From Candidatus Tepidifontimicrobium thermophilum (GTDB lineage Bacteria > Sysuimicrobiota > Sysuimicrobiia > Sysuimicrobiales > Sysuimicrobiaceae), in assembly GCA_031459915.1 (NCBI GenBank), contig JAVKHO010000001.1:25492-89491 (forward strand): a stretch of 64,000 nucleotides of DNA, written 5' to 3'. The notes below the pieces were generated by a model. It made no database searches. It was not told the DNA's origin and worked only from the letters and a program-made list of their open reading frames with translations. A program made the translations under genes and the position numbers. The first letter of the stretch is position 1; every line of letters begins with the position of its first letter. This document shows positions 2,936 through 42,954 of the stretch, piece by piece.

Positions 2936-3370
2936 TCACCTCCTTCCGAGCTCCAGGGCTTTGAGGATGACCTGCTTGACGGTGTTGAAGGCCACCGCGT
3001 TCAGCTCGTAGTTCCGGGCCGAGGCCATCAGGTCGGCCATCTCCATGACGGGGTCCACGTTGGGCAGGGCCACGAAGCCCTCGCGGTCCGCGTCGGGGTG
3101 ACCGGGGTCGTACACGCGCCGCGGCGGCGAGGGATCCTCCACGATGCCCGCCACCACGACGCCGCGGCTGTCGGAAAGCGCGTCCCCTCCCAGCGACGCC
3201 GCCAGCCGTTCCACGAGGGGCGCGAAGAACACCACGCGACGCCGGTAGGGCCCGCCCTCCGGGGTTCGGGTGGTATGGGCGTTGGCCAGGTTGGAAGTGG
3301 CCACCTCCATCCGCACGCGCTCTGCGGTCAGGGCCGAAGCGCTGGTGGCCAGGGCGCGGAACAGCGACAC
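2936..3370 (-). CDS. flgC: flagellar basal-body rod protein FlgC
   Basis: 144 aa. The N-terminal rod motif is SNLANAHTT and the C-terminal motif is ARNYELN. GTG start with a GAGGAGGAGG RBS. Confidence 0.9.
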   Translation of the reverse strand: MSLFRALATSASALTAERVRMEVATSNLANAHTTRTPEGGPYRRRVVFFAPLVERLAASLGGDALSDSRGVVVAGIVEDPSPPRRVYDPGHPDADREGFVALPNVDPVMEMADLMASARNYELNAVAFNTVKQVILKALELGRR

Positions 3371-3383
3371 CCTTCCTCCTCCT

Positions 3384-3731
3384 CTAGCGGCGCCCCTCCA
3401 GGATGGCGGAGCGCAGTAACTCCAGCTTGGCTGCCAGCAGGTTGGTCAGGGCCATGGCCTGCAGTGCGGTGCGGCTCAGTTCCGCAGCCTCTAGCTCGGG
3501 GTCCGGCTCGGTGCCGTCCGACCGCAGGAACGCGACCCCCGGAGCGGGGATTTGTTCGCCTGCGGCCTCCTCGTACAGCGCCCGGAGGGTAGCCCCGAAG
3601 TCCACGTCGACCCGCGCGTAGCCGGGGGTGTGGGCATTGGCCAGGTTGCCCGCCAGCACCGCGTGCCGCCGGGCCAGGGCCCTCAACGATGCCAGCAGGT
3701 ACTGGCCGGTAGCGTCCAGGACGTTGGCCAT
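3384..3731 (-). CDS. flgB: flagellar basal-body rod protein FlgB
   Basis: The 263-aa ORF call has a spurious N-terminal extension. The real gene is 115 aa and starts at MANVLDATG (ATG at 3729-3731), with the rod motif NLANAHTPGY. Confidence 0.85.
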   Translation of the reverse strand: MANVLDATGQYLLASLRALARRHAVLAGNLANAHTPGYARVDVDFGATLRALYEEAAGEQIPAPGVAFLRSDGTEPDPELEAAELSRTALQAMALTNLLAAKLELLRSAILEGRR

Positions 3732-3745
3732 GCCACCGGAGGGCG

Positions 3746-3761
3746 TTGCACAATCGGTGCC
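3746..3761 (-). promoter_or_regulatory. sigma54 (-24/-12) promoter upstream of flgB: minus-strand GGCACcgattgTGCAA
   Basis: Revcomp of 3746-3761 is GGCACCGATTGTGCAA. GG and GC are spaced exactly as in the TGGCACG-N4-TTGCW consensus. It lies in the 44-nt rpoN-flgB gap. The predicted TSS falls only about 5 nt before the flgB ATG, so the leader would be very short. Confidence 0.55.
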
Positions 3762-3775
3762 GCGGCGCGGCTCCT

Positions 3776-5182
3776 CTACACCGCGGCCTCGGACAACGCC
3801 GCGGCACGGCGCCGCGCCCGGGCGGAGGGGATCCGCGCCATCTCCCGGTACTTGGTGACCGTCCGCCGGGCCACCGCAAACCCCTCCGCCCTCAGCCGGG
3901 CCGCCAGCTCCTCGTCCGTGAGGGGCGCTAGCGGGTCCTCGCCCGCCACCAGCTGCCGGATCCGCTCCCGCACGGGAAGGCTGCTGTCGAAGAACACCTC
4001 GAAGGGCACCACCCGGCCGTCGGGCATCTGCACGAACTTCCCGCTCAGGGCCCGGCTCACCGTGGACTCCCAGACCCCCAGAGCCTCTGCCAGGCGGCTC
4101 AGGGTCAAGGGCTTCAGGTGCGCGGGCCCGTGGTCCAAAAACCCCCGCTGGTAGCGGACCAGGTACTCCGCGCACCGCTGCAGCATCGCGTTCCTACGCC
4201 GCACTGCCTCGATGAACAGCCGGCCCTTGCGGACCTGCGCCCGTAGCCGCTCCCGCTCCTCCGAGGTCAGCTGGCCCTGCAGGAACGCCTGGCGGATCAG
4301 GGGGTGGATCCTCAGCTGCGTCACTGCAGCACCCACCAGTTCCACCCGGTATCCGTCCTCCGTCCGGTGGATGGCCACGTCCGGCACCGCCAGCTCCTCG
4401 GGCCGGACCCGGTCCCCGCCGTGGTCCATGTGGAACGCCTCCGCAGGGTAGGCGACCAGGTGCCGCCGGATGTACCGCACCGCGGCGTGCACGTCTTCCG
4501 CCCGAACCCCCAACCCCGCGGCTACCGTACCGTACTGGCCCCGGCCCAGGGCCTCCAGGTAACCCGCCACCGCGGCCCGCGCCACACGGCGCAGCGGGCA
4601 GTCCGGCAGCCGTTCCAGCTGGAGCAGCAAACATTCCCGCACGTCCCGCGCACCCACCCCAGCGGGCTCGCACGCCTGCAGGGCCTGCAGGGCGCGCTCC
4701 ACCAGGTCCAGCGGCACCCGCAGCTCTGCCGCGACGTACGCCAGGTCCACGTCCAGGTAGCCGCGGCCGTCCACGTAGCCCACCAGGTGCAGGGCCACCC
4801 GCAGGACCGCGGGGTCCCTCACGTTCACCCGCAACTGCGCTTCCAGGGAGTCCAGCAGGTTGGCGGGAGCCGCCGCCCGGTCGAGGGCAGACGGCCGCTC
4901 CTCGGGCCGTTCGTGCCCATGCCACCTGTTCGCCCAGCTCCGCCAGCCGCCGAAGGCGAACTCCCCGCACCGGCTGCAGGTCACCCCTTCCACCGGGTGC
5001 CCGCAGTGAGGGCAGGGCACCGGCACCCGCTCCAGCACGGGGTTTTCCTCCAGCTCCTGCTCTACCCGGGCCAGCAGCTCCGTCACCGTCAGGGGAAGGA
5101 TGGCGTTCACCGCGAGGATGGTCTGCAGGGTCCTCGCCTCGACCGCGGGGACGCAAACGGCACGCACCTCTGCTCCGACCAT
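3776..5182 (-). CDS. rpoN: RNA polymerase sigma-54 factor RpoN, with a Cys4 insertion in region II
   Basis: 468 aa. It has a region I Leu/Gln-rich helix and a C-terminal RpoN box (ARRTVTKYRE). ATG start with a GGAGGGGTGA RBS. It carries an unusual CPHCGHPVEGVTCSRCGEF segment. Confidence 0.9.
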   Translation of the reverse strand: MVGAEVRAVCVPAVEARTLQTILAVNAILPLTVTELLARVEQELEENPVLERVPVPCPHCGHPVEGVTCSRCGEFAFGGWRSWANRWHGHERPEERPSALDRAAAPANLLDSLEAQLRVNVRDPAVLRVALHLVGYVDGRGYLDVDLAYVAAELRVPLDLVERALQALQACEPAGVGARDVRECLLLQLERLPDCPLRRVARAAVAGYLEALGRGQYGTVAAGLGVRAEDVHAAVRYIRRHLVAYPAEAFHMDHGGDRVRPEELAVPDVAIHRTEDGYRVELVGAAVTQLRIHPLIRQAFLQGQLTSEERERLRAQVRKGRLFIEAVRRRNAMLQRCAEYLVRYQRGFLDHGPAHLKPLTLSRLAEALGVWESTVSRALSGKFVQMPDGRVVPFEVFFDSSLPVRERIRQLVAGEDPLAPLTDEELAARLRAEGFAVARRTVTKYREMARIPSARARRRAAALSEAAV

Positions 5183-5257
5183 GTCACCCCTCCGTGCGCC
5201 GGTTTCTGCCTGCGCCGGCCCGCCCCCCTCGGTGCCGGTGCGGCCCTGCCGGGCCTG

Positions 5258-5609
5258 CTAGCGCAGAGCCCTCCGGATCGCCTCCACGAGCCGCGTCTGG
5301 TCGAAGGGCTTGACCACGAAGTCCCGCGCGCCGGCCTGGATGGCCTCCACCACCAGCGCCTGCTGTCCCATGGCGCTGACCATCACGATCCGCGCGGACG
5401 GGTCGCGGCGCAGGATCTCCCGTACCGCCTGCACCCCGTCCATCTGCGGCATGGTGATGTCCATGGTGACCACGTCGGGTTTTGCCTCCTCGTAGCGGGC
5501 GACGGCCTCTTCGCCGTTGCTGGCCTCCGCCACCACCTGGAAGCCGCTGTTGGTGAGGGCCTCCCGGATCATGGCCCGCATGAACAGGGCGTCGTCCACC
5601 ACCAGCACC

Positions 5610-5620
<11 letters not shown>
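5258..5620 (-). CDS. cheY: chemotaxis response regulator CheY
   Basis: 120 aa single receiver domain: VLVVDD ... DITMPQMDG ... K. Its start overlaps the cheA stop. Confidence 0.9.
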
Positions 5621-7526
<1,906 letters not shown>

Positions 7527-7531
7527 CGTCC

Positions 7532-8011
7532 CTAGGCGGTCTGCAGCTCGGCCAGCTCGCGCTGCTCGTGGACCTCCAGCACCCGCTGCAGGTCCAGCAG
7601 CAGGATCAGATCGTCCCCCTGCTTCGCCACGCCCCGCAGGAAGGCCACCTCCGAGGCCGCCAGCAGTTCCTCCGGCGGCACCACCGCGCTGTCCGGCAGC
7701 CGCATCACCTCCAGGACCGCGTCCACCACCATCCCCACCCGGCTGCCGTTCATCTCCACCACCACGATGCGCGAGGCCCCGTTCCGCTCCCCCGCCGCCA
7801 GTCCGAACCGGCGCCGCAGGTCGATCACGGGGATCACCTGGCCCCGCAGGTTGATGACCCCCTCCACGAAGCTGGGCGCCCGGGGGATCCGGGTCACCTC
7901 CTGCATCCGGATGATCTCGTGTACGTGCTCGATGGGCACCCCGTACCGTTCCCGGTCCAGGCGCACCACCACCAGCTGCTGTTCCTTGGTCTCCCCGCGC
8001 CGCGCGTTCAT
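7532..8011 (-). CDS. cheW: chemotaxis coupling protein CheW
   Basis: 159 aa single CheW domain. ATG start with a GGAGGTGAGGG RBS. Confidence 0.9.
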   Translation of the reverse strand: MNARRGETKEQQLVVVRLDRERYGVPIEHVHEIIRMQEVTRIPRAPSFVEGVINLRGQVIPVIDLRRRFGLAAGERNGASRIVVVEMNGSRVGMVVDAVLEVMRLPDSAVVPPEELLAASEVAFLRGVAKQGDDLILLLDLQRVLEVHEQRELAELQTA

Positions 8012-8014
8012 CCC

Positions 8015-9400
8015 TCACCTCCACGGCTGTCGTGCCTGCCACCGCTCGGCTTCCCGGCCCAGCTCCCCGGAGGCCAGACTGTCCGCGAAAGCCGACACCA
8101 CTTCCGGGTCGAACTGCGCGCCCCGCTGCCGGTGCAGCTCCTCCAGCGCCTGGCCCGGCAGGACCGGGCCCCGGTACACCCGGCCCGTGGTCATCACCTC
8201 GTAGGCGTCCGCCACCGCCAGGATCCGGGCGCCCGCGGGGATGTCCGTACCGGTCAGGCCCATGGGGTACCCGCGGCCGTCCCACCGCTCGTGGTGGTGC
8301 AGCACCCATCGCACCACGTTCTCTCCGAAACCCGCCGCGGACAGGATCTCCGCCCCCATGACGGTGTGGCGCTGGACGATCTGGTACTCCTCCGGGGTGA
8401 GCGGGCCTGGCTTGAGCAGGATGGTGTCGCTGATGCCGATCTTGCCCACGTCGTGCAGCATCCCCGCCACCCACAGGTCTTCCAGGTCCCGCTCCGAGAA
8501 CCCCAGCCGGCGGCCCACGGCCACCGCGTAGGAGGCCAAGCGCTCGCCGTGCCCCCGCAGCGAAGCCTCGTGCAGCTCGCACGCGTACGCCAGAGCCTCC
8601 ACCAGCCGCCGGTGGCCGTGCTGCAGCCTGCGGAGCAGGTCCACCTGAACCAGGGGAAGAGCCCCCACGATCCCCAGCACGTCCAGTAGCTCCCGCTCTT
8701 CCGGGCCGAAGGGCTGCCGGTGCGCGTCCCGCACCACCGTGAGGGCTCCCAGGGTACGGTCCGCGGTGGCCAGGGGTACGCTGGCCACGTGGGACTCCTC
8801 CGCCTCGGGGCCGACGGGTGCCTGCGCCAGGCTCACCGGGACCACGGTCCAGAACCCCTCTGCAGTCTGGGAGCCCCGTCGCTCCGCCATCGCCACCGCC
8901 AGGTCGGTCGCCTCGGGACACAGGGTGACCGCAGCTGCGCGGTCCGCACCCACCGTCACCCGCGCGATCTCCGCCAGCCTCCGCAGGACCGCTTCCGGGC
9001 TGCTGTCCGCGGGCACGAGCTCCCGCAGGCGCAGCAGCGGCTGGAGCACCTCCCTCCGGGCGGCCTCGCGGAGGCGGCGGAGGTGCACGACTGCCCGGCG
9101 CACTTCGCCGGCCAGGGTCTCCGGATCCAGGGGCCGCGCCACCACGCCGGCAGCACCCCACCGAACGGCTTCGGGTACCCGTTCCGGAGGCGCCACCGCC
9201 ACCACGGGGACGTGGGGGTAACGGGTCACCAGCCGGGATGCGTCCTCTGCGGGCACTTCGTCCACGTCCACCACCACCGCGTCCGCCTCCCACATCAGCG
9301 CCGCCGCCTCCGACCCGCACACCGAGGGGACGTGACGGAACTGGACGCCCGCGTGGCTCCCCCCCAACGCCACGCTGCCCACCACCACGCACCGAAGCAT
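8015..9400 (-). CDS. HD-GYP domain c-di-GMP phosphodiesterase with an N-terminal pseudo-receiver and a GAF-like domain
   Basis: The HD (LHDVGK) and GYP (HHERWDGRGYP) motifs are intact. The N-terminal REC-like fold has VVVGS in place of the acidic pair. The ORF call starts at 9466, overlapping the EBP stop. A sigma54 element at 9433-9448 argues for the ATG at 9398-9400 (MLRCVVVG) as the true start. Confidence 0.8.
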   Translation of the reverse strand: MLRCVVVGSVALGGSHAGVQFRHVPSVCGSEAAALMWEADAVVVDVDEVPAEDASRLVTRYPHVPVVAVAPPERVPEAVRWGAAGVVARPLDPETLAGEVRRAVVHLRRLREAARREVLQPLLRLRELVPADSSPEAVLRRLAEIARVTVGADRAAAVTLCPEATDLAVAMAERRGSQTAEGFWTVVPVSLAQAPVGPEAEESHVASVPLATADRTLGALTVVRDAHRQPFGPEERELLDVLGIVGALPLVQVDLLRRLQHGHRRLVEALAYACELHEASLRGHGERLASYAVAVGRRLGFSERDLEDLWVAGMLHDVGKIGISDTILLKPGPLTPEEYQIVQRHTVMGAEILSAAGFGENVVRWVLHHHERWDGRGYPMGLTGTDIPAGARILAVADAYEVMTTGRVYRGPVLPGQALEELHRQRGAQFDPEVVSAFADSLASGELGREAERWQARQPWR

Positions 9401-9432
9401 TTCCACGACGGCCGCGCTCCCGCGCAGCAGCG

Positions 9433-9448
9433 TTGCAAAGTCCGTGCC
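9433..9448 (-). promoter_or_regulatory. sigma54 promoter upstream of the HD-GYP/cheW/cheA/cheY block: minus-strand GGCACGGACTTTGCAA
   Basis: Revcomp of 9433-9448 is a good match to TGGCACG-N4-TTGCA. It starts 2 nt after the EBP stop codon. Confidence 0.55.
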
Positions 9449-9449
9449 G

Positions 9450-10652
<1,203 letters not shown>

Positions 10653-10753
10653 GGCTCCCCGGATCCGAAGAAATTGGGGAGTCGGGACGAGCGGACTCAG
10701 TCCGCCGTCCACGGCTCCCCCCGATGGGTCCCTCGGGACCCGCGAGGCGTCAC

Positions 10754-10768
10754 TGCAAGATCCGTGCC
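10754..10768 (-). promoter_or_regulatory. sigma54 promoter upstream of the EBP gene: minus-strand TGGCACGGATCTTGCA
   Basis: Revcomp of 10754-10769 is a perfect match to the TGGCACG-N4-TTGCA consensus. It begins 2 nt after the MCP stop. The implied leader is about 90 nt. Confidence 0.65.
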
Positions 10769-10769
10769 A

Positions 10770-12500
10770 CTACACCTGGAACCGGGCCACCACCCGCTCC
10801 AGGTCCTCCGCCACCCGCGCCAGCCGCTGGGCGCCACCGGACATCTCCTGGGTGCTGGCGGAGATCTCCTCCACCGCGGCGCCCACCTCCTCCGCGGACG
10901 CGGAGTTCTGCTGGGCGGTCTCGAGCAGCTTGCGCACCGTGGCCTCGATCTGCTGGGCGCTGGCGGACAGCTGCTGGGTGGCCGCCGACACCCCCTCCGT
11001 GCGGCCGGTCACATCGGCCACGCTCCGGCGGATGCGCTGGAACGCCTCGCCCGCTTCGTCCGCCAGCCGTACGCCCGTCTGCACCTCCTGGCTGCCGCGC
11101 TCCATGGCCCGCACCGCCCGCTGCGTCTCCTCCTGGATCTCCCGAACGATGTCCGCGATCTGCTCCGCGGCCTGGGCGGACTCCTGGGCCAGCTTGCGGA
11201 CCTCCTCAGCCACCACCGCGAAGCCCCTCCCCTGGTCTCCGGCCCGGGCCGCCTCGATGGCCGCGTTCAGGGCCAGCAGGTTGGTCTGGGACGCGATCTC
11301 CGTGATGAGTCCCACGATGCGCCCGATGTTCTTGCCCTTCTCTCCCAGCACGGACACCACCTGGGCCATCTCCTCCGCGGCGCGGCGGATCTCCCCCATG
11401 GCCTGTACGACCCGCTCCACCCGCGCCGCGCCCTCGGAGGCCGCCTCGTTGGCCTGCTGCGCGGCCTGCGCGGTCTGGCTGGTGTTGCCCGCCACCTCCT
11501 CGAGCCCCTGGCTGACCTGCTGGACCGTCTGGGTGGTCTCGTGCACGCTGCGGGCCTGCAGCTCCGCGCCGCTCGCGACCTCCTGCACCGCCCGGGCGAT
11601 CTCCCCGGCGCTGCGGGCCACCTGGTCGCTGGTGGCCGCCACCTGCCGCGAGGCGCCCGCCACCTCACCGGCGCTGTCCCGCAGCTGCTGGACCATCTCC
11701 CGCAGCGCGTCGGTGGCCGCCTGAAGGCCCGCGGCCATGCGTCCCAGTTCGTCCTGGCTGTAGACCGCCACCCGGTGCGTCAGGTCTCCCCGGCTGAGTG
11801 CAGCCACCGCCTCCTCCACAGCCCGTACCTGCGCGGTGAGCCGCCGCGTGGTGGCCCACCCGAAGGTGCCCGCGATCACCAGGCCGAGCAGCAGCACGCC
11901 TGCGATGTTCCGCCGCAGCTCCACGCCGAGTGCGGCGACCCGCTGCTCGCGGACCCTGGCTGCCTGCGCGAGCTGGTCCTGCAGCTGGTCCAGTTGCTCC
12001 CGGGCCGGGTCGAAGGTCCCGCGGACCTTCTGACGCCCCTGCTCCAGCGCGTCCCCGGAGGTCAGCAGCCCCTGTTCGTACTGGGACCGCAGGGCTCGGA
12101 TCTCGTCGCCCCAGGTCCGCACGCCGCTGGCGAACCCCGCGGCCAGCAACCGGTCCCGTTCCTCCTGCAGGAACTCCTGCGCCTTGGTCGCTCGGTCCAC
12201 CGCCTGCTTCAGGTTCTCGTCCATGAACTGGCTCAGCTCCTGGTACCGGGTGCGGTGGTTGGGGTCCGTGCCCAGCAGAGCGTAGAAGGCCGACAGGGCC
12301 TGGTAAGCGTCTCGGTCCGCCTGCAGGACGTGGTCCAGGGCGGCCAGCTCCCGCTGCACCGCCGCCAACTCTGCCCGCACGCGGTCCACCGCCCGGATCC
12401 CCATCCAGCCGCCGACCAGAGCCACCGCGCCCAGCAAGCTCAGGGCCACCAGGAGCTTCCACCGCACGGGCCAGTCCGCCACACGACGCCAGCGCTTCAT
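10770..12500 (-). CDS. methyl-accepting chemotaxis protein (two TM segments, periplasmic sensor, HAMP, MA domain)
   Basis: The 808-aa ORF call has a spurious 232-codon N-terminal extension. The real start is [10 protein letters not shown] (ATG at 12498-12500, RBS GGAGGTGAG). The C-terminal signalling domain is a canonical MCP domain. Confidence 0.9.
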
Positions 12501-12527
12501 CCGCCGCTCACCTCCACGCGCAGCGCC

Positions 12528-12542
12528 TGCAACCTCCGTGCC
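12528..12542 (-). promoter_or_regulatory. sigma54 promoter upstream of the MCP gene: minus-strand GGCACGGAGGTTGCA
   Basis: Revcomp of 12528-12542 gives GGCACG-N4-TTGCA with correct spacing. The TSS would fall about 17 nt before the MCP ATG. Confidence 0.6.
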
Positions 12543-12577
12543 GGAGCGCCGCCCGGATCTCGAACCAGACCGCCCGG

Positions 12578-12898
12578 CTACCGGTACGTGTCCAGGAAGT
12601 GCGGCTCGGCTGGAGCCACCACGGGCCGGAGCAGGTCCCGAAGCCGGCGGAGACGGTCGGTGACCCGCTGGTTCAGCCGCGCGGCCTCCTCCAGCAGCAC
12701 CAGCGCCTGTGCCCGCAGGTCTTGCAGCTCCGGCCTCGAGGGAAAAGGCAGCCGGTCCGCGGCGTCCATGGCCCGCTGCCGGGCCACCAGGTGAGCCAGC
12801 ACCGCCTCCCACTGTCCACGGTCCGCGGCCCGCGCCACCTCGCTCGTGCACCGCAGGACCTCCCGGCAGGCCTCCACGTACCGCTCCACTGGGTTCAC
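12578..12898 (-). CDS. small helical protein in the FliT position (putative flagellar export chaperone FliT-like)
   Basis: 106 aa. GTG start in a GTGA overlap with the fliS stop. It is the gene after fliD-fliS, as fliT is in Bacillus. The protein is all-helical and charged. The assignment rests on position only. Confidence 0.4.
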
Positions 12899-13278
12899 GA
12901 GACCTTCCCTCCCGCCCGGAGCTGCCGCTCCGCCTCCTGCCAGGCGTCCCGCAACTGCACCAGCCAGGCCCGCACTTGCTCCAGCTCCGCCGGGTCCTGG
13001 CGGCGCCGGGCGTCCGCCAGCCGCTCGAACATGAACCGGTAGAGGGCGAGGAGGCTGCGGGCCACGTCGTACCGCAGGTCCAGCGAACCCATGAGTTCCA
13101 GCAGTACCCGCTCGGCCCGGGTGACGCAGCGCCCCCCGGCTTGCGCGTCCCCCGACCGGTAGGCGCGGGCCGCCTCTTCCAGGAAGCGCACCGCACCGTC
13201 GTACAGCATCACCACCAGCTGGCCCGCGGAAGCGGTGGACGCGTGGAAGGACCGGTACGCGAGCGCGGCCTGGCTCAC
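12895..13278 (-). CDS. fliS: flagellin-specific chaperone FliS
   Basis: The ORF call is extended at the N-terminus. A GTG start at 13276-13278 in a GTGA overlap with the fliD stop gives a 127-aa protein with the FliS core motifs [18 protein letters not shown] and [10 protein letters not shown]. Confidence 0.85.
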
Positions 13279-14615
13279 GGATTGTTCCCCCCGAGCCTCC
13301 GGATCTGCATGGCGAGCCAGTCCCCCTGGCTCCGGAGCTGCCCGAGGCTCTTCTCCAGCTCCGTGAACATCCGCACGAGCTGGTCCCGCTTGCGCTCCAC
13401 CCGGTCCTCCCATCGACCGATCTGCTGGTCGTAGGTACGGATGCGGTTGTTGAGGGCGTCCACCGCGAGCCAGACCGGCCCGCCGGTCTTCACAAGTCCG
13501 TCCGCCATGTCCCGCACCTTCGCGCCGGAGGCCTCCAGCACCCGCCGCGCCTCGTCGAAGCGGCCCTGCAGGGCGTCGGCGAGCTTCGACTCGTCCAGGG
13601 TCAGCCTGCCGTCCCGGCCCACGCGCACCCCCAGGTCGCTCAGGCGCTTGAGGGTCTGACCTGCGACCTCGGTGCGCAGGACCGCGTCGGGAAGCTGTGC
13701 TTGGATCCGCTGGAGGGTCCCGTCGCCCTGCAGGGCCCCGCGCTGCCGGCTTTCCGGGTCGTACCGCCCGTACTGGCTGAGGCTGTCTACCACGTCGTTG
13801 TAGGCGGCCACGAAGTCCCGCACCGCCTTTTTGACGGCCTCCACGTCCTGTTCCACGGCGACCGTCACGGTCCCCGTGCCGGCCAGGGCCAGGGTGACCC
13901 CGGGCAGCAGGTCGGTGACCACGTTGGACGGCCGGCGCACGGTCACCGCGCCCGCCCCGGTCCCGAGCACTACCTCCGCGTCCTGCGCGGGGCTGACCTC
14001 GTTCGGAAAACTGAGGATCTCGGTGCCGCCCGCAAGCCCGCCCGTGTCCACCGCGATGGCGCCCGCAGCCCCGGAGGTCCGGGAGGTCAGCAGGAGCCGC
14101 CAGCCCCCGTCCACCTGCACGACCGCCGCGTACACCCCTGCACCGGCGGCGTTGACGGCTGCGGCGATCCCTGCCAGGGAGTTCTGGCCGCTTGTGATGG
14201 TGACGTCCGTAGCCTGCCCGTTCACGGTGACGGTGACCGTCCCGGTGCCGAACACCTGGGCGTCCTTGTCCGCATAGGTGTCGGTGCTGATCTGGTGGGC
14301 AGCCGCCAGGCGGTTCAGGGTGAGCGTGTAGGTCCCCGAGGGGGCGCCCGGGGAAGCCGAGGCCACCAGGACCCGGGTGTCGCTGCTGCTGGCCTTCGCA
14401 GCCTGGTAGGTGAGGGAGCGGGCCAGGGCGGCAGCCCGGTCCTCCAGGTTGCTCAACTTGGTGTTGAGGGTCCGCCAGGCCGCAAGACGTAAATTGGCTT
14501 CACTCTTGCGGGCTTCGAGCTTGCGGACCGGTGCCCGCTCGACCTCCAGGAGCTTGTTGATGACGTCCGTGGTGTTGAGCCCCGAGATCAGTCCGTCGAC
14601 GCTGAAGGTGGACAC
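13275..14615 (-). CDS. fliD: flagellar filament cap protein FliD
   Basis: 446 aa from a GTG preceded by GAGGAGGGG. The N-terminus (SVDGLISGLNT) and the C-terminal coiled region are typical of FliD. Confidence 0.85.
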   Translation of the reverse strand: MSTFSVDGLISGLNTTDVINKLLEVERAPVRKLEARKSEANLRLAAWRTLNTKLSNLEDRAAALARSLTYQAAKASSSDTRVLVASASPGAPSGTYTLTLNRLAAAHQISTDTYADKDAQVFGTGTVTVTVNGQATDVTITSGQNSLAGIAAAVNAAGAGVYAAVVQVDGGWRLLLTSRTSGAAGAIAVDTGGLAGGTEILSFPNEVSPAQDAEVVLGTGAGAVTVRRPSNVVTDLLPGVTLALAGTGTVTVAVEQDVEAVKKAVRDFVAAYNDVVDSLSQYGRYDPESRQRGALQGDGTLQRIQAQLPDAVLRTEVAGQTLKRLSDLGVRVGRDGRLTLDESKLADALQGRFDEARRVLEASGAKVRDMADGLVKTGGPVWLAVDALNNRIRTYDQQIGRWEDRVERKRDQLVRMFTELEKSLGQLRSQGDWLAMQIRRLGGNNP

Positions 14616-14684
14616 CTTCCCCTCCTCTGGCCCCTCCCTCGTGGGGTCCGGGCCTTCCACGAAGGACACGCAAACTCTGTGCCG

Positions 14685-14975
14685 CTACACCCGCACGTCC
14701 ACCCCGCCGGCTCCCAGCAGGAACTCCACCACCTGGTTGGGCGGGATGGTCCGGATGGTCTCGCCCGTGCGGGTGTCGTAGATCCGCACGAGAACCCGGC
14801 CTGTCCGCTCGTCCACGATGAACTGAGCCGCCACGTCCAGGGCCGAAGGAGCGGGCTGAGGCCGGTCCACCCTCGGACCCTGGCCGTTCCCGCGCACCCC
14901 CTTTTCCCGTGCGGGCTGCGGCTCGGCTGCCTCGGGCTTCTTCGGACTGATCGACCCGGGCGGAGGCACCTGCAT
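14685..14975 (-). CDS. flaG: flagellar protein FlaG
   Basis: 96 aa from an ATG at 14973-14975 (RBS GGGGAGGTGGTGA). The C-terminal motif DERTGRVLVRIYDTRTGETIRTIPP is the FlaG family signature. Confidence 0.75.
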   Translation of the reverse strand: MQVPPPGSISPKKPEAAEPQPAREKGVRGNGQGPRVDRPQPAPSALDVAAQFIVDERTGRVLVRIYDTRTGETIRTIPPNQVVEFLLGAGGVDVRV

Positions 14976-14994
14976 CGTCACCACCTCCCCGCCT

Positions 14995-15024
14995 GGGGGC
15001 GGGGCCCGCACCGGCCCCGCCCCC
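14995..15024 (-). terminator. perfect 12-bp GC inverted repeat (GGGGGCGGGGCC / GGCCCCGCCCCC, 6-nt loop) between the hag stop and the flaG RBS. Probably a partial terminator or attenuator.
   Basis: Seen directly in the sequence. No U-tract follows on the coding (minus) strand, which is common in high-GC genomes. Confidence 0.45.
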
Positions 15025-15035
15025 ACGCCTCCGCC

Positions 15036-16208
15036 TTACCGCAGCAGCTGCAGGACCACCTGCGGCGCGGCGTTGGCCTGCGCCAGCATGGCAGTCCCGG
15101 CCTGCAGGAGGATCTGGTTGCGGGTGAACACCACCATCTCCTGGGCCATGTCCGCGTCCCGGATCCGGGACTCCGCGGCCGTCATGTTCTCCTGGGCCAC
15201 GCCCAGGCTCGCCACGGTGTGCTCGAGCCGGTTCTGGGCCGCTCCGTACTTCCCCCGCTGCGTGGAGACCGTGTTCACCGCCGAATCCACCGCCGTCACC
15301 AGGGCCTGGGCGTTCGTCACAGTCTGGCTGCTGTTGAAGTTGTCCAGAGCCGCCGTGAGGCCGAGCGCGGCCACGTCGACCTTCGCGAAGGACACGCTGA
15401 TGGAATCTCCGGCCGCAGGGCCCACCTGGAAGTTCGCGCTGCCCGAGCCCGTGGCCGTAGTGATAGTGTCGTTCGCCGTCGCGGTCAGGGCTGTCACCAG
15501 GTTCGCACCCGTGATTCCGCCGCTGCTCGCCACGGTAATCTTCACGCCCAGCTGGCTGAAGTCCAGCACCTGGCTTCCGCCCGCCGAAATCGGGCCCACT
15601 GTGATCGTCTGGGCGGCCCCATCGGCCCGCGTCAGGGTGAGCGAGGTGCCACTGCCCGTCAGCGTGTAGGTGGTCCCCGGCCTCGCTGCGCTCACGTCCA
15701 CTTTGGTCACAAACGCGGACTCCCCGCCACCCGTGACGGCCAGGTTGTCCCGAAGCTCACTGGAGGTGTCCAGGGACGTGACCAGAGAGCCGTCCAGCAG
15801 CTTCTTGCCGTTGAAGGTGGTGCGACCGCTCACGTTGTCGATCTCCGCGCGCAGCTGCTGGATCTCCTGGTTGATGGCCTGCCGGTCCTCCGCGGAAAGG
15901 GTGTCGTTGGCGGCCTGCAGGGCCAGCTCCCGCATCCGCTGCAGCATGGCGTGGACCTCGTTGAGGGCGCCCTCTGCGGTCTGGATCATGGAGATGCCGT
16001 CCTGGGCGTTGCGGATGGCCTGTGCGAGCCCCCGCACCTGCGCCCGCAGCTTCTCGCTGATGGCGAGCCCCGCCGCGTCGTCCGCGGCGCGGTTGATGCG
16101 GAAGCCGCTCGAAAGGCGCTCCAGCGACTTGCTCAGGGCGTTGTCGGTGGCCACCAGGTTGCGGTGGGCGTTCAGGGCCGCGATGTTCTGGTTGATCCTC
16201 AGTCCCAT
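15036..16208 (-). CDS. hag: flagellin
   Basis: 390 aa. The N-terminus is MGLRINQNIAALNAHRNL and the C-terminus is ...QVVLQLLR, both flagellin termini. ATG start with a perfect AAGGAGG RBS. Confidence 0.95.
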   Translation of the reverse strand: MGLRINQNIAALNAHRNLVATDNALSKSLERLSSGFRINRAADDAAGLAISEKLRAQVRGLAQAIRNAQDGISMIQTAEGALNEVHAMLQRMRELALQAANDTLSAEDRQAINQEIQQLRAEIDNVSGRTTFNGKKLLDGSLVTSLDTSSELRDNLAVTGGGESAFVTKVDVSAARPGTTYTLTGSGTSLTLTRADGAAQTITVGPISAGGSQVLDFSQLGVKITVASSGGITGANLVTALTATANDTITTATGSGSANFQVGPAAGDSISVSFAKVDVAALGLTAALDNFNSSQTVTNAQALVTAVDSAVNTVSTQRGKYGAAQNRLEHTVASLGVAQENMTAAESRIRDADMAQEMVVFTRNQILLQAGTAMLAQANAAPQVVLQLLR

Positions 16209-19350: not shown

Positions 19351-19809
19351 TCACGTCCACCGGTCCACTACGAGGCTCGCGGGGCCGTCCGCACTCCGGG
19401 TCAAGATCCCCACGAGGTGGCGGACGTACTCCATGTGTGCCCGGACCAGCAGGGCGTTGGCCTTGTTGACGTCGGCCAGCTCCCGGAGGACTCCGGTCAG
19501 CTCGTGCCTCTGCGCCTCCAGGCGGCGGCCCACGTCCGGCGGGCTGGCGGCCACCAGCTCCCGCAGGCTCAGCTCCTGCACGGACCTCCCCAGGCGCTCG
19601 GCCACCAGCTCCAGCAGCTGCAGCCGTGCCCGTTCCAGGCCGCGGACCTGGCCGACGACCTGTTCCTGCTCGGCCACCAGGCGCTGCAGGCTCTGCACGT
19701 CGCCGCGCACCAGGGCCCGCTGCTCTTCCCGGGCCAGGTCCAGCAGCCGGCGGTGGGCCTCCGTCTCTTCCTGCAGCAGCCCCACCACGCTCTCAAACAC
19801 GTCGGTCAT
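19351..19809 (-). CDS. flgN: flagellar chaperone FlgN (YvyG-like)
   Basis: 152 aa helical protein between flgM and flgK, in the Bacillus order. Confidence 0.7.
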   Translation of the reverse strand: MTDVFESVVGLLQEETEAHRRLLDLAREEQRALVRGDVQSLQRLVAEQEQVVGQVRGLERARLQLLELVAERLGRSVQELSLRELVAASPPDVGRRLEAQRHELTGVLRELADVNKANALLVRAHMEYVRHLVGILTRSADGPASLVVDRWT

Positions 19810-20056
19810 GGCGTGCCCCCGCCGCCCGCAGGATGGCCCGTGCCAGGGCCTCTTCCGTCACGTGGTACCGGCCCTGCAGGATGGCCTCCCGCAGGGCCTC
19901 CAGCCGCAGCTGGCGCTCGTCCACATTCCGGTGCGGGTCGGAGCTGGAAAGTTCGACACGGTCCTCCGCGGGCGGCGCGGGCGCACCGCGCGGCGCGGAG
20001 GCACCGGAGGGGCGGTCCGGCGGTACGCCCGGAGGCCCCAGGGGGTCGATCCTCAC
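19793..20056 (-). CDS. flgM: anti-sigma-28 factor FlgM
   Basis: 87 aa with a proline-rich, disordered N-terminus and a C-terminal helix (RLEALREAILQGRYHVTEEALARAIL). GTG start with a GGAGGGTG RBS. The gene order matches Bacillus yvyF-flgM-flgN-flgK-flgL. Confidence 0.7.
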   Translation of the reverse strand: MRIDPLGPPGVPPDRPSGASAPRGAPAPPAEDRVELSSSDPHRNVDERQLRLEALREAILQGRYHVTEEALARAILRAAGARHDRRV

Positions 20057-20089
20057 GGCACCCTCCTGCTGGGTCGATTCACGTCCCCG

Positions 20090-20608: not shown

Positions 20609-20899
20609 CTACCGTGCCCGGCGCTCCAACGCCTGTTCGAGGAACCGGGCGAGCCCCAGACCTCCAGCGTGCGCCACCGCCAGGGCCAGCTGTTCGTCCA
20701 GCAACTCCCGCCACACGCTCCGGCCGGCGAAGGACTGCCCGGTATCCCAGGCCTCCGTGGCCCGGCGCATGGACTTCAGCATCTGAGCCAGCAACAGCGC
20801 CTCGAACTCCTGACTGACCTTCCGCAGCCGAACGAGCTCCCGGGCATCCTCGGGACGCCCGACGGATTCCCGGAGCGGTACCCGCGGGACGCCCGTCAC
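20609..20899 (-). CDS. FlgJ-like rod-binding protein, N-terminal domain only with no muramidase domain
   Basis: 96 aa with the rod-binding domain pattern SQEFEALLLAQMLKSMR...GGLGLA. Confidence 0.7.
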   Translation of the reverse strand: MTGVPRVPLRESVGRPEDARELVRLRKVSQEFEALLLAQMLKSMRRATEAWDTGQSFAGRSVWRELLDEQLALAVAHAGGLGLARFLEQALERRAR

Positions 20900-22011
20900 T
20901 GCACCACCAGCTCGCCCTGCAGGGCACCCGCGGCCTTGAGGGCCTGCAGGATCGCCACCAGGTCTCTGGGGCCCACGCCCAGGGCGTTCAGGGCCCGCGC
21001 CAGGTCCTGCACCGAGTTGGTCCCGGGGATCGGGACCAGAGCGCCGGGCTCCGGTGTGACGGTGACCTGAGTGCGCGGGACCACCTGGGTCTGGCCCGGC
21101 GAAAACGGAGGGGGTTGGGAGACCTGCGGCTCGCTACGGACCTCGATGCGCAGGTTGCCGTGGGCGATGACCACAGGCAAGATCCGGACCGCCCCGCCGA
21201 TGACCACGGTCCCGGTCCGCTCGTTCACCACCACGCGGGCGGGTGCGTCGGGGCGGAGGGTCACCGCCTCCACGCGGGCCACGAACGCCGCGAGGCCCCC
21301 CGGGTAGTCGGGAGGTACAGCGACGTCCACGCGCGCGGCGTCCACCGCGGTGGCCGGGGAGCCGCCCAGCGCACGGTTGACCGCCTCGGCCACGCGGGTG
21401 GCGGTGGAGTAGTCCGGTTGCAGCAGCACCAGGCTCACCACCGACGCCTCGCCCGCAGGGGTGGGGACGCCGCGTTCCACAATGGCCCCGCCGGGGATCC
21501 GGCCCACGGTCAGGTGGTTGATCTGCGCCTTGCTGCCGCCGGCCTGCTCTCCCGCGCCCCCCACCACCACGGGCCCCTGAGCGACCGCGTACACCTTGCC
21601 GTCCGCCGCCTGGAGGGGTGTCTGCAGCAGCACGCCCCCCACGAGGCTGCGGGCGTCGCCCAGGGAGGAGAGGGTCACGTCCAGCCGGTCGCCTTCTCGG
21701 GCGAAGGTGCCCAGCTCCGCGGTGGCCATGACCGCGGCCACGTTGCGCACCCGAAGCCTGCTGGCCGGGACCGTGACGCCGAGCCGCGCCAGCATGTTCG
21801 CCACGGACTGCACGGTGAAGAACGCGCCGGAACTGTCCCCCGTGCCCGCCAGCCCCACTACCAGCCCGTAGCCGAACAGCTGGTTGGCGCGCACGCCGGA
21901 GATCCGCGCGATGTCCTTCACCCGTACCTCGGGCACCTGCGCGCCGCCCGGAAGGGCCACCGCGGCCACCACCACCGCCAGTCCCAGCCACCTCGCCCAG
22001 GGCCTCACCAC
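20896..22011 (-). CDS. flgI: flagellar P-ring protein FlgI
   Basis: 371 aa with a signal peptide. The full-length FlgI pattern is conserved throughout. GTG start with a GAGGAGGTGG RBS. Confidence 0.95.
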   Translation of the reverse strand: MVRPWARWLGLAVVVAAVALPGGAQVPEVRVKDIARISGVRANQLFGYGLVVGLAGTGDSSGAFFTVQSVANMLARLGVTVPASRLRVRNVAAVMATAELGTFAREGDRLDVTLSSLGDARSLVGGVLLQTPLQAADGKVYAVAQGPVVVGGAGEQAGGSKAQINHLTVGRIPGGAIVERGVPTPAGEASVVSLVLLQPDYSTATRVAEAVNRALGGSPATAVDAARVDVAVPPDYPGGLAAFVARVEAVTLRPDAPARVVVNERTGTVVIGGAVRILPVVIAHGNLRIEVRSEPQVSQPPPFSPGQTQVVPRTQVTVTPEPGALVPIPGTNSVQDLARALNALGVGPRDLVAILQALKAAGALQGELVVQ

Positions 22012-22020
22012 ACCACCTCC

Positions 22021-22617
22021 TCACTCCAACCAGGAGAACAGAAAGCGCAGGAGGGCGCCGAAGCCGTCCAGCACCCACTGCAGGGGGTTGTTACCTGTGA
22101 ACGGGCGACGCGGCCCCTCCAGCACGATGCGCACGTCCGCCAGCCGGTCAGAGCTCACCGTGTTGTCCGCCTGCACGTCCAGCCGGCGCACCAGGCCGCT
22201 CACCCGCAGCCGGTACGGCTCGTCCCGGAGCAGCAGCGTCCGATCCCCCTCCAGCCTCAGGACGCCGTTCGGGAGCACCTCCGCAACCCGCAGGGTGACC
22301 CGGGCCTGAACCAGGACGGTGCTGCCCACCGCGCGGCTGGAGCTGGCGTCCTGCCCGGACTCAAACCCTGCGCCCGGGAGCAGGCTCAGAAAGCCGCTCC
22401 CGCCGCCCAGGTCCAGCTGGACCGACCGCGCCTGACTGGTCCGGCTCTGCGTCTGGGCGGCGACAGCCTCGTTCACCACCACCGTGACCAGGTCGCCCAC
22501 CTCGGAGGCCTTGTGGTCCGTAAACAGGGAACGGCCGTCCTGCGGCCACAGGGACTGCGCTGCGCCGGGCGAGCCCACCAGGATCGCCACCGCCAGACTT
22601 GCCAGCCACCTCCACAC
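22021..22617 (-). CDS. flgH: flagellar L-ring protein FlgH, with no lipobox Cys
   Basis: The real start is the GTG at 22615-22617 (VWRWLASLAVAILVG... signal peptide, RBS GGAGG). The FlgH core (...LRDEPYRLRVSG...) is conserved. The mature N-terminus has no cysteine. Confidence 0.9.
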   Translation of the reverse strand: MWRWLASLAVAILVGSPGAAQSLWPQDGRSLFTDHKASEVGDLVTVVVNEAVAAQTQSRTSQARSVQLDLGGGSGFLSLLPGAGFESGQDASSSRAVGSTVLVQARVTLRVAEVLPNGVLRLEGDRTLLLRDEPYRLRVSGLVRRLDVQADNTVSSDRLADVRIVLEGPRRPFTGNNPLQWVLDGFGALLRFLFSWLE

Positions 22618-22630
22618 GGCCCGGCCTCCG

Positions 22631-23137
22631 TCAGAAAACCACCGCCACCAGCCCGGGCTGCACCACCCGGGCCAGCACCTCCTTCCGGGTCGCAAGCACC
22701 CGGACCCGCACCACGTCGCCCGCGTCGCCGGCTTCCAGCGCCACGCCGCCCGCGCTCACCCGCACCGCGCCCACCGCGGCCACCACCCGCACCGAGGCTC
22801 CACGGCGGACCGCGGCGCTGCCCTCTTCCCGCCGCACCACAACCTCCCGCGCCCCCGTGACGGTCACCGCCCCGGGGTCGAACCCGGCTTCCCTCAGGGC
22901 CACCCGGACGTCTTCCGAGGTGATCCGTACGACCCCGCCCGGACGGAGGCCCTCCGCCACCACCACCGCCTGCAGGGCTCGCACCGCGCGGTCCGGGCCT
23001 GACACCGAAGCCACCTGCCCGAGGGTCACCTCCGCGGCCTCCACCCGCGCCGCGGACCGCAGCCGGACCACCGCGCCGCCCGCGGACGCGGCTGCTGCAA
23101 CGACCGCCACCAGCACGAGCGCCATGAGGGCTCGCAC
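22631..23137 (-). CDS. flgA: flagellar P-ring assembly chaperone FlgA
   Basis: 168 aa with a signal peptide and a SAF-type FlgA C-terminal domain. GTG start 2 nt after the flgG stop. Confidence 0.75.
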   Translation of the reverse strand: MRALMALVLVAVVAAAASAGGAVVRLRSAARVEAAEVTLGQVASVSGPDRAVRALQAVVVAEGLRPGGVVRITSEDVRVALREAGFDPGAVTVTGAREVVVRREEGSAAVRRGASVRVVAAVGAVRVSAGGVALEAGDAGDVVRVRVLATRKEVLARVVQPGLVAVVF

Positions 23138-29518: not shown

Positions 29519-29594
29519 TGGCGCGCCCGGAGGGAATCGAACCCCCGACCAGAGGCTTAGGAGTCCCCTGCTCTATCCACTGAGCTACGGGCGC
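29519..29594 (-). tRNA. tRNA-Arg (anticodon CCU), CCA encoded
   Basis: Hand-folded cloverleaf: acceptor GCGCCCG/CGGGCGC, D-arm GCTC-AGTGGATA-GAGC, anticodon loop CU-CCU-AA, T-arm GGGGG-TTCGATT-CCCTC, discriminator G. Confidence 0.85.
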
Positions 29595-42865: not shown

Positions 42866-42954
42866 GGAGGGGTGCACCGAACTGGCTAAGGGGCCGGTCT
42901 CGAAAACCGGTGGCCCTCGGGGCCTTGTGGGTTCGAGTCCCACCCCCTCCGCCA
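42866..42954 (+). tRNA. tRNA-Ser (anticodon CGA), class II with a long variable arm, CCA encoded
   Basis: Hand-folded: acceptor GGAGGGG/CCCCTCC, anticodon stem CCGGU/ACCGG with loop CU-CGA-AA, variable arm UGGCCCUCGGGGCCUU, T-arm GUGGG-UUCGAGU-CCCAC. Confidence 0.8.

Follow-up and report, generated by a model that had tools for sequence, protein, structure and literature searches.

Why does a gene for a predicted cyclic di-GMP (c-di-GMP) phosphodiesterase lie between the gene for a sigma-54 activator and the chemotaxis genes cheW-cheA-cheY, and how would its product be expressed and controlled there? The question is raised by a minus-strand gene, here called the HD-GYP gene, in a stretch of 64,000 nucleotides from Candidatus Tepidifontimicrobium thermophilum (contig JAVKHO010000001.1, positions 25,492 to 89,491); this whole stretch is referred to as the window, and all coordinates are counted from its first letter (Table 1). 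The explanation that we favour with some confidence is that the gene encodes a phosphodiesterase with a decayed receiver, which would be translated from a GTG at 9406, transcribed from a sigma-54 promoter of its own and expressed as part of the flagellar and chemotaxis programme. An earlier note, made from the letters of this DNA, had already described the gene as lying between the activator and cheW-cheA-cheY, with a pseudo-receiver devoid of the acidic pair, a GAF domain and an intact HD-GYP domain; this description of position and architecture is borne out by gene order, Pfam, AlphaFold2 models searched with Foldseek, profile-profile comparison (hhalign) and alignments, while its account of the promoter, the start codon and the operon needs some revision.

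A probable HD-GYP enzyme with a decayed receiver

Both motifs of the catalytic domain, MLHDVGK and HHHERWDGRGYP, are found intact in the translation and are invariant across the family, and the domain is recognised by Pfam HD_5 (1.4e-39; 136 bits, cut-off 27.2) and by Pfam HD (2e-21). Its best relative in the PDB is PmGH (4mcw; phmmer E 4.6e-36), and the other nearest solved relatives, V-cGAP3 (5z7c), PA4781 (4r8z) and DvhD (9rbz), are all characterised HD-GYP phosphodiesterases. In the alignment to 4mcw seven of the eight metal ligands of PmGH are kept (H189, H221, D222, H250, H276, H277 and D305), the eighth, E185, being replaced by Ser (...HEASLRGH...), and the substrate-binding lysine of the LLKPG motif (K332) is invariant in the family. 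E185 is the third-metal ligand of the trinuclear subclass, which takes c-di-GMP through to GMP, while the binuclear subclass tends to halt at pGpG and several of its members are weak in vitro (bioRxiv 10.1101/2021.11.05.467447); because of the Ser at this position, a binuclear site is expected here. The product is thus a probable cytoplasmic phosphodiesterase of the HD-GYP class, whose substrate would most likely be c-di-GMP.

The central domain is a GAF domain, matched by Pfam GAF at 24.7 bits, the cut-off being 22.4 (residues 157-265 of the 483-amino-acid form of the protein discussed below) and also by GAF_3 and GAF_2; in the full-length AlphaFold2 model (predicted local distance difference test score, pLDDT, 87.8) a helix spanning residues 235-277 leads from it into the HD-GYP domain, and Foldseek aligns this model to PmGH with E 3e-17 across 364 columns that include the GAF-like domain. 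DUF3369 (PF11849) gave no match to the central domain at E <= 0.01 in Pfam; membership of the RpfY family, which is defined below by that domain, is ruled out, a GAF domain being found in its place.

The N-terminus is unmatched by Pfam Response_reg in the window protein and matched only below threshold in its relatives. The AlphaFold2 model of residues 1-128 (pLDDT 91.1) nevertheless retrieves receivers as all of its top 50 Foldseek hits in the PDB, with template-modelling scores of 0.6-0.7, among them CheY4, NtrX, PleD and 3hv2, a receiver from an HD-domain protein; in profile-profile comparison the N-terminus matches CheY with 94% probability (E 1.3e-7), and a match to the receiver of FleR has E 6.8e-4. 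When the residues of the phosphorylation site are scored by alignment with the canonical REC-GAF-HD-GYP proteins P0152, P0160, P0030 and P0082, in CheY numbering, little of the site is left: the acidic pair DD has become GS, helix alpha1 has been swapped for a short beta-hairpin, Thr87 is Ala beside a three-residue deletion, and Lys109 is Arg in the window protein and Pro, Ser or Leu in its relatives, so that D47, the equivalent of Asp57, is the sole survivor of the quintet D12/D13/D57/T87/K109. Because the acidic pair, Thr87, Lys109 and alpha1 are all lost, phosphotransfer to this receiver is unlikely.

Two of the canonical proteins, P0152 and P0160, have the same size and domain order as the window protein and align with it from end to end, which marks it, as far as comparison of sequences goes, as a degenerate descendant of canonical REC-GAF-HD-GYP response regulators. 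A further relative of this architecture, P0146 (498 amino acids), is intermediate, with a receiver that scores 28.5 bits against the Pfam cut-off of 30.2 and has retained Lys109; it suggests that in this branch the receiver decayed step by step. A search made with the first 255 residues found only three of 1.84 billion representative proteins at E <= 1e-10, and the 17 clusters (at 90% identity) that span the full length carry as source labels Armatimonadota metagenome-assembled genomes and, in one case, 'bacterium HR31'.

The sigma-54 promoter, the probable transcript and the neighbouring activator

Directly past the TGA of the activator gene (9452-9450), and inside the open reading frame that starts at 9466, lies the element CGGCACGGACTTTGCA, which fits TGGCACG-N4-TTGCW at 11 of the 12 specified positions with a GG-GC spacing of 10 nucleotides. 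The 64 kb contain four copies of the exact core GGCAC-N5-TTGC where 0.76 are expected, and two of 100 shuffled sequences reach four; all four cores are on the minus, coding strand and in short intergenic gaps of the flagellar and chemotaxis cluster, which together amount to about 250 nucleotides and in which, by a rough estimate, about 0.0015 hits are expected by chance. The junctions between stop codon and promoter read TAG-TGGCAC and TAG-CGGCAC at the activator and fliD promoters and TGA-CGGCAC at the HD-GYP promoter.

Conservation was followed in nine related loci (L001 and L081-L088), whose HD-GYP orthologues are 47-95% identical to the window protein; their contexts were obtained by exact-protein look-ups, while a family-profile scan of contigs gave one true orthologue, that of L001. 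The exact core stands upstream of the HD-GYP orthologue in eight of the nine loci, and the ninth, L082, departs from it by one mismatch (GGCAG-N5-TTGCA); it lies always on the coding strand, 25-37 nucleotides ahead of the start, and even the most divergent locus, L087, has a perfect TGGCAC-N5-TTGCA ahead of the gene. When the spacers are aligned, only the -24/-12 bases and the start GTG-GA are invariant or nearly so and the flanks diverge. In most of the related loci the motif also precedes the fliD gene, the gene for the methyl-accepting chemotaxis protein (MCP) and the activator gene. Since the core is conserved, the rpoN gene of the cluster passes the equivalog cut-off of TIGR02395 (280.2 against 277.35) and a sigma-54 activator is encoded next to the HD-GYP gene, there is strong comparative evidence that CGGCACGGACTTTGCA acts as a functional sigma-54 promoter. 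The element proposed in the earlier note is therefore real; the position given for it (9433-9448) was one base off, the correct one being 9434-9449. From the usual -12 geometry, transcription would start at about 9424-9422. A scan of positions 3000-16000 for sigma-70 promoters and terminators yielded nothing relevant.

Only three nucleotides separate the HD-GYP gene from cheW (3-17 throughout the related loci) and the same scan detected no terminator-like site between the HD-GYP gene and rpoN, so that co-transcription with the chemotaxis core, as previously suggested, is likely; co-transcription with rpoN, which follows cheY after a gap of 75 nucleotides, is possible, and neither a sigma-54 motif nor a terminator was seen between cheY and rpoN. 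The order activator, HD-GYP, cheW-cheA-cheY, rpoN is kept in L081-L086 and in L088. L087 (GCA_016210785.1, 1-4013) has a REC gene, a REC-type activator, the HD-GYP gene and rpoN, with no chemotaxis genes between; because this trio persists there without them, the HD-GYP gene appears tied to the activator and rpoN at least as tightly as to the chemotaxis core, and this tie seems to be the deeper of the two. If rpoN is partly carried on a sigma-54-dependent transcript, a positive feedback may result. A GC-rich hairpin, GGCCCggcaGGGCC, is found just past the stop codon of cheY.

The activator belongs to the bacterial enhancer-binding proteins (bEBPs). Its receiver is degenerate and is followed by an AAA+ domain and a lid (Pfam Sigma54_activat 3.9e-70; AAA_lid_14), and a Pfam search detected in the protein no DNA-binding domain or C-terminal helix-turn-helix; indeed, all nine orthologues end 10-20 residues past the lid, and the NCBIfam matches stop 50-85 model positions short of the ends of the NtrC, AtoC and FlgR models. 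Its GAFTGA loop reads GAYTHA (family pattern GA[YF]T[HN]A). Three of the four sigma-54 promoters of the window directly adjoin the coding sequence upstream of them and offer no space for an enhancer, in agreement with an activator without a DNA-binding domain. Having a sigma-54 promoter of its own, the activator gene appears to be auto-activated.

The N-terminus of the activator also matches CheY in hhalign (96%), and its phosphorylation site has decayed as well, with EP for DD and Gly at both the phospho-Asp (Asp57) and Lys109 positions. FleQ-like binding of c-di-GMP was considered for this protein and ruled out, since of the five contacts listed for FleQ (PMC9303241) four are replaced (R144 by D, N186 by S, E330 by F and R334 by K) and R185 alone is kept. 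The activator is encoded from one of two possible starts, GGGGAGCCGTG (10712) and GGGGAGCCATG (10652), which are near-duplicate contexts with two nucleotides between Shine-Dalgarno (SD) sequence and start in each; relatives and NCBI back the 400-amino-acid form from ATG 10652, and in the closest relative, L088, the activator is called truncated, at 359 amino acids. The leader of the activator gene (about 10715-10745, minus strand) contains a hairpin, GGGTCCC-ga-GGGACCC, followed by the invariant GGGGGGAG, and is kept in L001, L081, L083-L086 and L088; it was rejected as an established RNA structure, given that only one pair covaries. A similar conserved GC hairpin is present in the fliD leader. 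As csrA and fliW are in the cluster, these hairpins could be CsrA sites.

Start codon and competing explanations

Translation of the HD-GYP gene probably begins at GTG 9406-9404. The N-terminus of the family reads (M/V)-E-x-(L/I)-R-C in a conserved start codon context, GTG-GAR, and since Cys6 is invariant, residue 4 is the latest point at which translation can begin; for near-identical relatives the called length is 463 amino acids ('MEPLRC...'). Upstream of the conserved GTG, L085 and L086 offer no codon in frame from which translation could start, and the GTGs that follow in frame downstream cannot serve because they lie beyond the invariant Cys6. The GC of the promoter is 28 nucleotides away from GTG 9406, exactly as in the MCP gene, and the SD-like GGGAG is placed before this codon at a distance within the range of the neighbouring genes (cheW 6, MCP 10, fliD 5 and rpoN 6 nucleotides).

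The earlier note had chosen ATG 9400-9398 (461 amino acids, MLRCVVVG...), a start that now seems unlikely, though it keeps some claim: ATG is a stronger initiator than GTG, this codon too is downstream of the promoter, and NCBI holds the identical sequence once in this form (P0126, MDR7579740.1). Against it, the ATG is codon 3 counted from GTG 9406 and is CCG in 95%-identical relatives and ACG, CAG or CGG elsewhere, all these relatives starting at the GTG two codons upstream; it would lie 16 nucleotides from the SD-like sequence, as against 5-10 for the other genes of the cluster, and in L085 and L086 the choice of start is restricted to the GTG, as just described.

With the start at GTG 9406, the favoured explanation would work as follows. 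Sigma-54 and the enhancer-independent activator would turn on the late flagellar genes, the chemoreceptor gene, the activator gene itself and the HD-GYP-che(-rpoN) genes. The HD-GYP gene would be transcribed from its own promoter, opened by the adjacent activator without DNA-binding domain, and by read-through from the activator's promoter, on a transcript that would probably extend over cheW-cheA-cheY and perhaps over rpoN. The phosphodiesterase would then be made alongside the late flagellar and chemotaxis proteins and may serve to lower c-di-GMP as the cell commits to swimming; because its receiver has lost the chemistry of phosphorylation, its control is expected to come from the GAF domain or from a partner protein and not from phosphotransfer. 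Second-messenger control of motility at this locus, which the earlier note had proposed, may reasonably be supposed.

Several points weigh against this explanation. The replacement of E185 by Ser predicts a two-metal enzyme that would largely stop at pGpG, and V-cGAP3, which is specific for cyclic GMP-AMP (cGAMP), is nearly as near in sequence as PmGH. No candidate for a downstream effector is provided by the activator, which lacks the c-di-GMP-binding residues of FleQ, and a motif and Rfam search of the window revealed neither a GGDEF nor a PilZ gene, nor a riboswitch for c-di-GMP. The predicted leader of the HD-GYP transcript would be only about 17 nucleotides long, with the SD sequence at its extreme 5' end, and the start at ATG 9400 in this particular strain retains a minor share of the probability.

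Some of these points lend themselves to an alternative, which we hold to be improbable, according to which the protein does not hydrolyse c-di-GMP in vivo and either degrades another nucleotide (3'3'-cGAMP or pGpG) or binds a nucleotide and works chiefly as a partner of the activator, through the two pseudo-receivers. Besides the almost equal scores of V-cGAP3 and PmGH, it would be favoured by the persistence of the trio of activator, HD-GYP gene and rpoN without chemotaxis genes in L087, and by the observation that the N-termini of the activator and of the HD-GYP protein are nearer to each other (hhalign 97%, E 3.9e-11) than either is to CheY (94-96%). Compared pairwise, however, the two pseudo-receivers show weak similarity (BLASTP E 0.016), and their sequences are biased towards Ala, Val and Arg, so that paralogy of the two, which shows at the level of profiles, is to be taken as a lead only; moreover, the catalytic residues are all invariant across the family, which argues for retained catalysis.

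A bolder and still less probable proposal is that activator, HD-GYP protein and sigma-54 form a self-reinforcing cassette, in which sigma-54 promoters would drive not only the activator gene but also the HD-GYP(-che)-rpoN transcript and in which the phosphodiesterase would dock on the activator via the dead receivers, so that a signal sensed by the GAF domain, or local turnover of c-di-GMP, would gate sigma-54 activation directly. If this were true, a c-di-GMP enzyme would act on a bEBP by a protein-protein route, unlike the nucleotide binding of the FleQ type.

It is highly improbable that GGCAC-N5-TTGC is not an active promoter and that the HD-GYP gene is expressed solely by read-through from upstream. 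Read-through is to be expected in any case, as no terminator was found between the activator and the HD-GYP gene, and the leader from the proposed promoter would be unusually short; but the -24/-12 bases form the sole invariant block in a spacer that diverges between loci whose HD-GYP proteins are 47-95% identical, the MCP gene shares the 28-nucleotide geometry from GC to start, and in L081 and L084 the motif is found within longer non-coding gaps (87 and 139 nucleotides). Finally, that the form of 483 amino acids starting at GTG 9466 is real and the promoter-like motif mere coding sequence is scarcely credible: the frame is open and was picked by several gene callers and in several NCBI records of the identical sequence (MDQ7800695.1 and others), and the call for L083 extends through the promoter in the same manner, but the extension shares 17 nucleotides with the activator gene, is conserved as DNA in the pattern of a promoter and not as protein, and is absent or impossible in orthologues (L001 and L086 carry an in-frame stop 51 nucleotides before the start, and no upstream start codon exists in L085 or L086), so that the earlier note was right to reject it.

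The cluster and its relation to known systems

The HD-GYP gene is part of a large minus-strand flagellar and chemotaxis cluster. From 5' to 3' it comprises flgF, flgG, flgH, flgI, flgM, flgN, flgK, flgL, fliW, csrA, the flagellin gene and flaG; then fliD, fliS, fliT, the MCP gene, the sigma-54 activator gene and the HD-GYP gene; and then cheW, cheA, cheY, rpoN, flgB, flgC, fliE, fliF and fliG. The presence of flgI and flgH indicates a flagellum of the diderm type, and the flgM-like gene makes a sigma-28 tier probable alongside the sigma-54 tier. The DNA being very GC-rich, lists of six-frame open reading frames contain long artefacts, such as the frame at 5610-9392 (minus strand, 1260 amino acids), in which the out-of-frame HD-GYP/cheW region is fused to cheA, and an 'MCP' frame at 10770-13196 (minus strand, 808 amino acids) that extends back across the fliT and fliS region.

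Table 1. Features of the HD-GYP locus and of the surrounding window (aa, amino acids; nt, nucleotides).
Feature	Position	Strand	Remarks
HD-GYP gene	8015-9406	-	Preferred start GTG 9406-9404; 463 aa, MEMLRCVVVG...; stop TGA 8017-8015
Over-extension of the 483-aa call	9407-9466	-	20 codons; overlaps 3' end of activator gene, contains promoter
SD-like GGGAG	9417-9421	-	Lies 10 nt before GTG 9406 and 16 nt before ATG 9400
Alternative start ATG	9400-9398	-	461 aa
Pseudo-receiver	9125-9406	-	Residues 1-94: beta1, beta-hairpin replacing alpha1, then alpha2 to beta5
Long alpha5/linker helix	9023-9124	-	Residues 95-128, continuous in models; connects pseudo-receiver to GAF
GAF domain	8705-8998	-	About residues 137-234; Pfam and modelled secondary structure
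HD-GYP catalytic domain	8066-8632	-	About residues 259-447
HD motif	8450-8455	-	HD of MLHDVGK
GYP motif	8264-8299	-	HHHERWDGRGYP
HD-GYP promoter	9434-9449	-	CGGCACGGACTTTGCA; GG 9448-9447, GC 9436-9435; exact core GGCAC-N5-TTGC
Activator promoter	10754-10769	-	TGGCACGGATCTTGCA; adjoins MCP stop codon
MCP promoter	12528-12543	-	34 nt past fliT stop; GC-to-start 28 nt
fliD promoter	14669-14684	-	CGGCACAGAGTTTGCG; adjoins flaG stop codon
Sigma-54 activator (bEBP)	9450-10652	-	400 aa from ATG 10652; open reading frame back to GTG 10712
cheW	7532-8011	-	ATG 3 nt past HD-GYP stop; SD GGAGGTGA overlaps end of HD-GYP gene
cheA	5610-7526	-	638 aa
cheY	5258-5620	-	120 aa, canonical receiver; 11-nt overlap with cheA end
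rpoN (sigma-54)	3776-5182	-	75 nt downstream of cheY
MCP gene	10770-12500	-	576 aa from ATG 12500
fliD	13275-14615	-	
flgI and flgH (P and L rings)	within 20896-22755	-	
flgM-like anti-sigma-28 gene	19793-20089	-	
tRNA gene	29522-29594	-	With the next, the window's sole Rfam matches at gathering threshold
tRNA gene	42866-42951	+	

For the annotation of this lineage, the correction of the start codon, from 483 to 463 amino acids, concerns an error propagated in many database records. The analysis also adds four comparatively validated sigma-54 promoters for an uncultured, high-GC lineage labelled Armatimonadota, for whose sigma-54 regulon the literature searched held no description; behind these promoters lie late flagellar genes, the chemoreceptor, the chemotaxis core, the activator and probably rpoN, and into the same programme a predicted phosphodiesterase of the c-di-GMP type is wired, under an activator that would be enhancer-independent by design.

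The protein is a degenerate offshoot of the canonical REC-GAF-HD-GYP regulators, set within a sigma-54 flagellar regulon, and the locus is a variant of what is known and no new kind of system. Among the described HD-GYP families are RpfG (REC-HD-GYP), RpfX (REC-PAS-HD-GYP), RpfY (REC-DUF3369-HD-GYP) as well as PmGH (GAF-HD-GYP) (bioRxiv 10.1101/2021.11.05.467447). With regulators of the RpfG, RpfX and RpfY type, such as RpfG of Xanthomonas and VCA0210 of V. cholerae, the window protein shares the order of receiver fold, central sensor and C-terminal HD-GYP domain; it differs from them in a receiver without acidic pair, Thr87, Lys109 and alpha1, in a central GAF domain in place of DUF3369, and in showing, CheA aside, no apparent partner histidine kinase. 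PmGH of Persephonella marina (4MCW) has the same arrangement of GAF and HD-GYP domains and seven of eight metal ligands identical, whereas the Ser in place of E185, for which a binuclear and not a trinuclear site is expected, and the additional N-terminal pseudo-receiver set the window protein apart.

The activator, being without a DNA-binding domain, is grouped with the group-5 bEBPs that lack this domain, FlgR of Helicobacter and Campylobacter and CtcC of Chlamydia (PMC7175178); like these, it consists of a receiver-like domain and an AAA+ domain and ends past the lid, but its receiver is degenerate and its loop reads GAYTHA. In Pseudomonas and Vibrio the connection of c-di-GMP with sigma-54 and flagella is a classical one (PMC9303241); there, FleQ and FlrA are likewise sigma-54 activators with a non-phosphorylatable, receiver-like N-terminus, set over flagellar genes and with c-di-GMP tied to their regulon. 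In contrast to FleQ and FlrA, the window activator has neither a DNA-binding domain nor the c-di-GMP contacts of FleQ, and the link would be made by a co-expressed enzyme predicted to degrade c-di-GMP, and not by a regulator that binds it. What sets the present case apart is the dead receiver without alpha1, the lineage, and the conserved sigma-54 promoter placed between a bEBP without DNA-binding domain and the chemotaxis core and rpoN; the classical link would thereby extend beyond the Proteobacteria, in a different form, that of a co-expressed predicted degrading enzyme.

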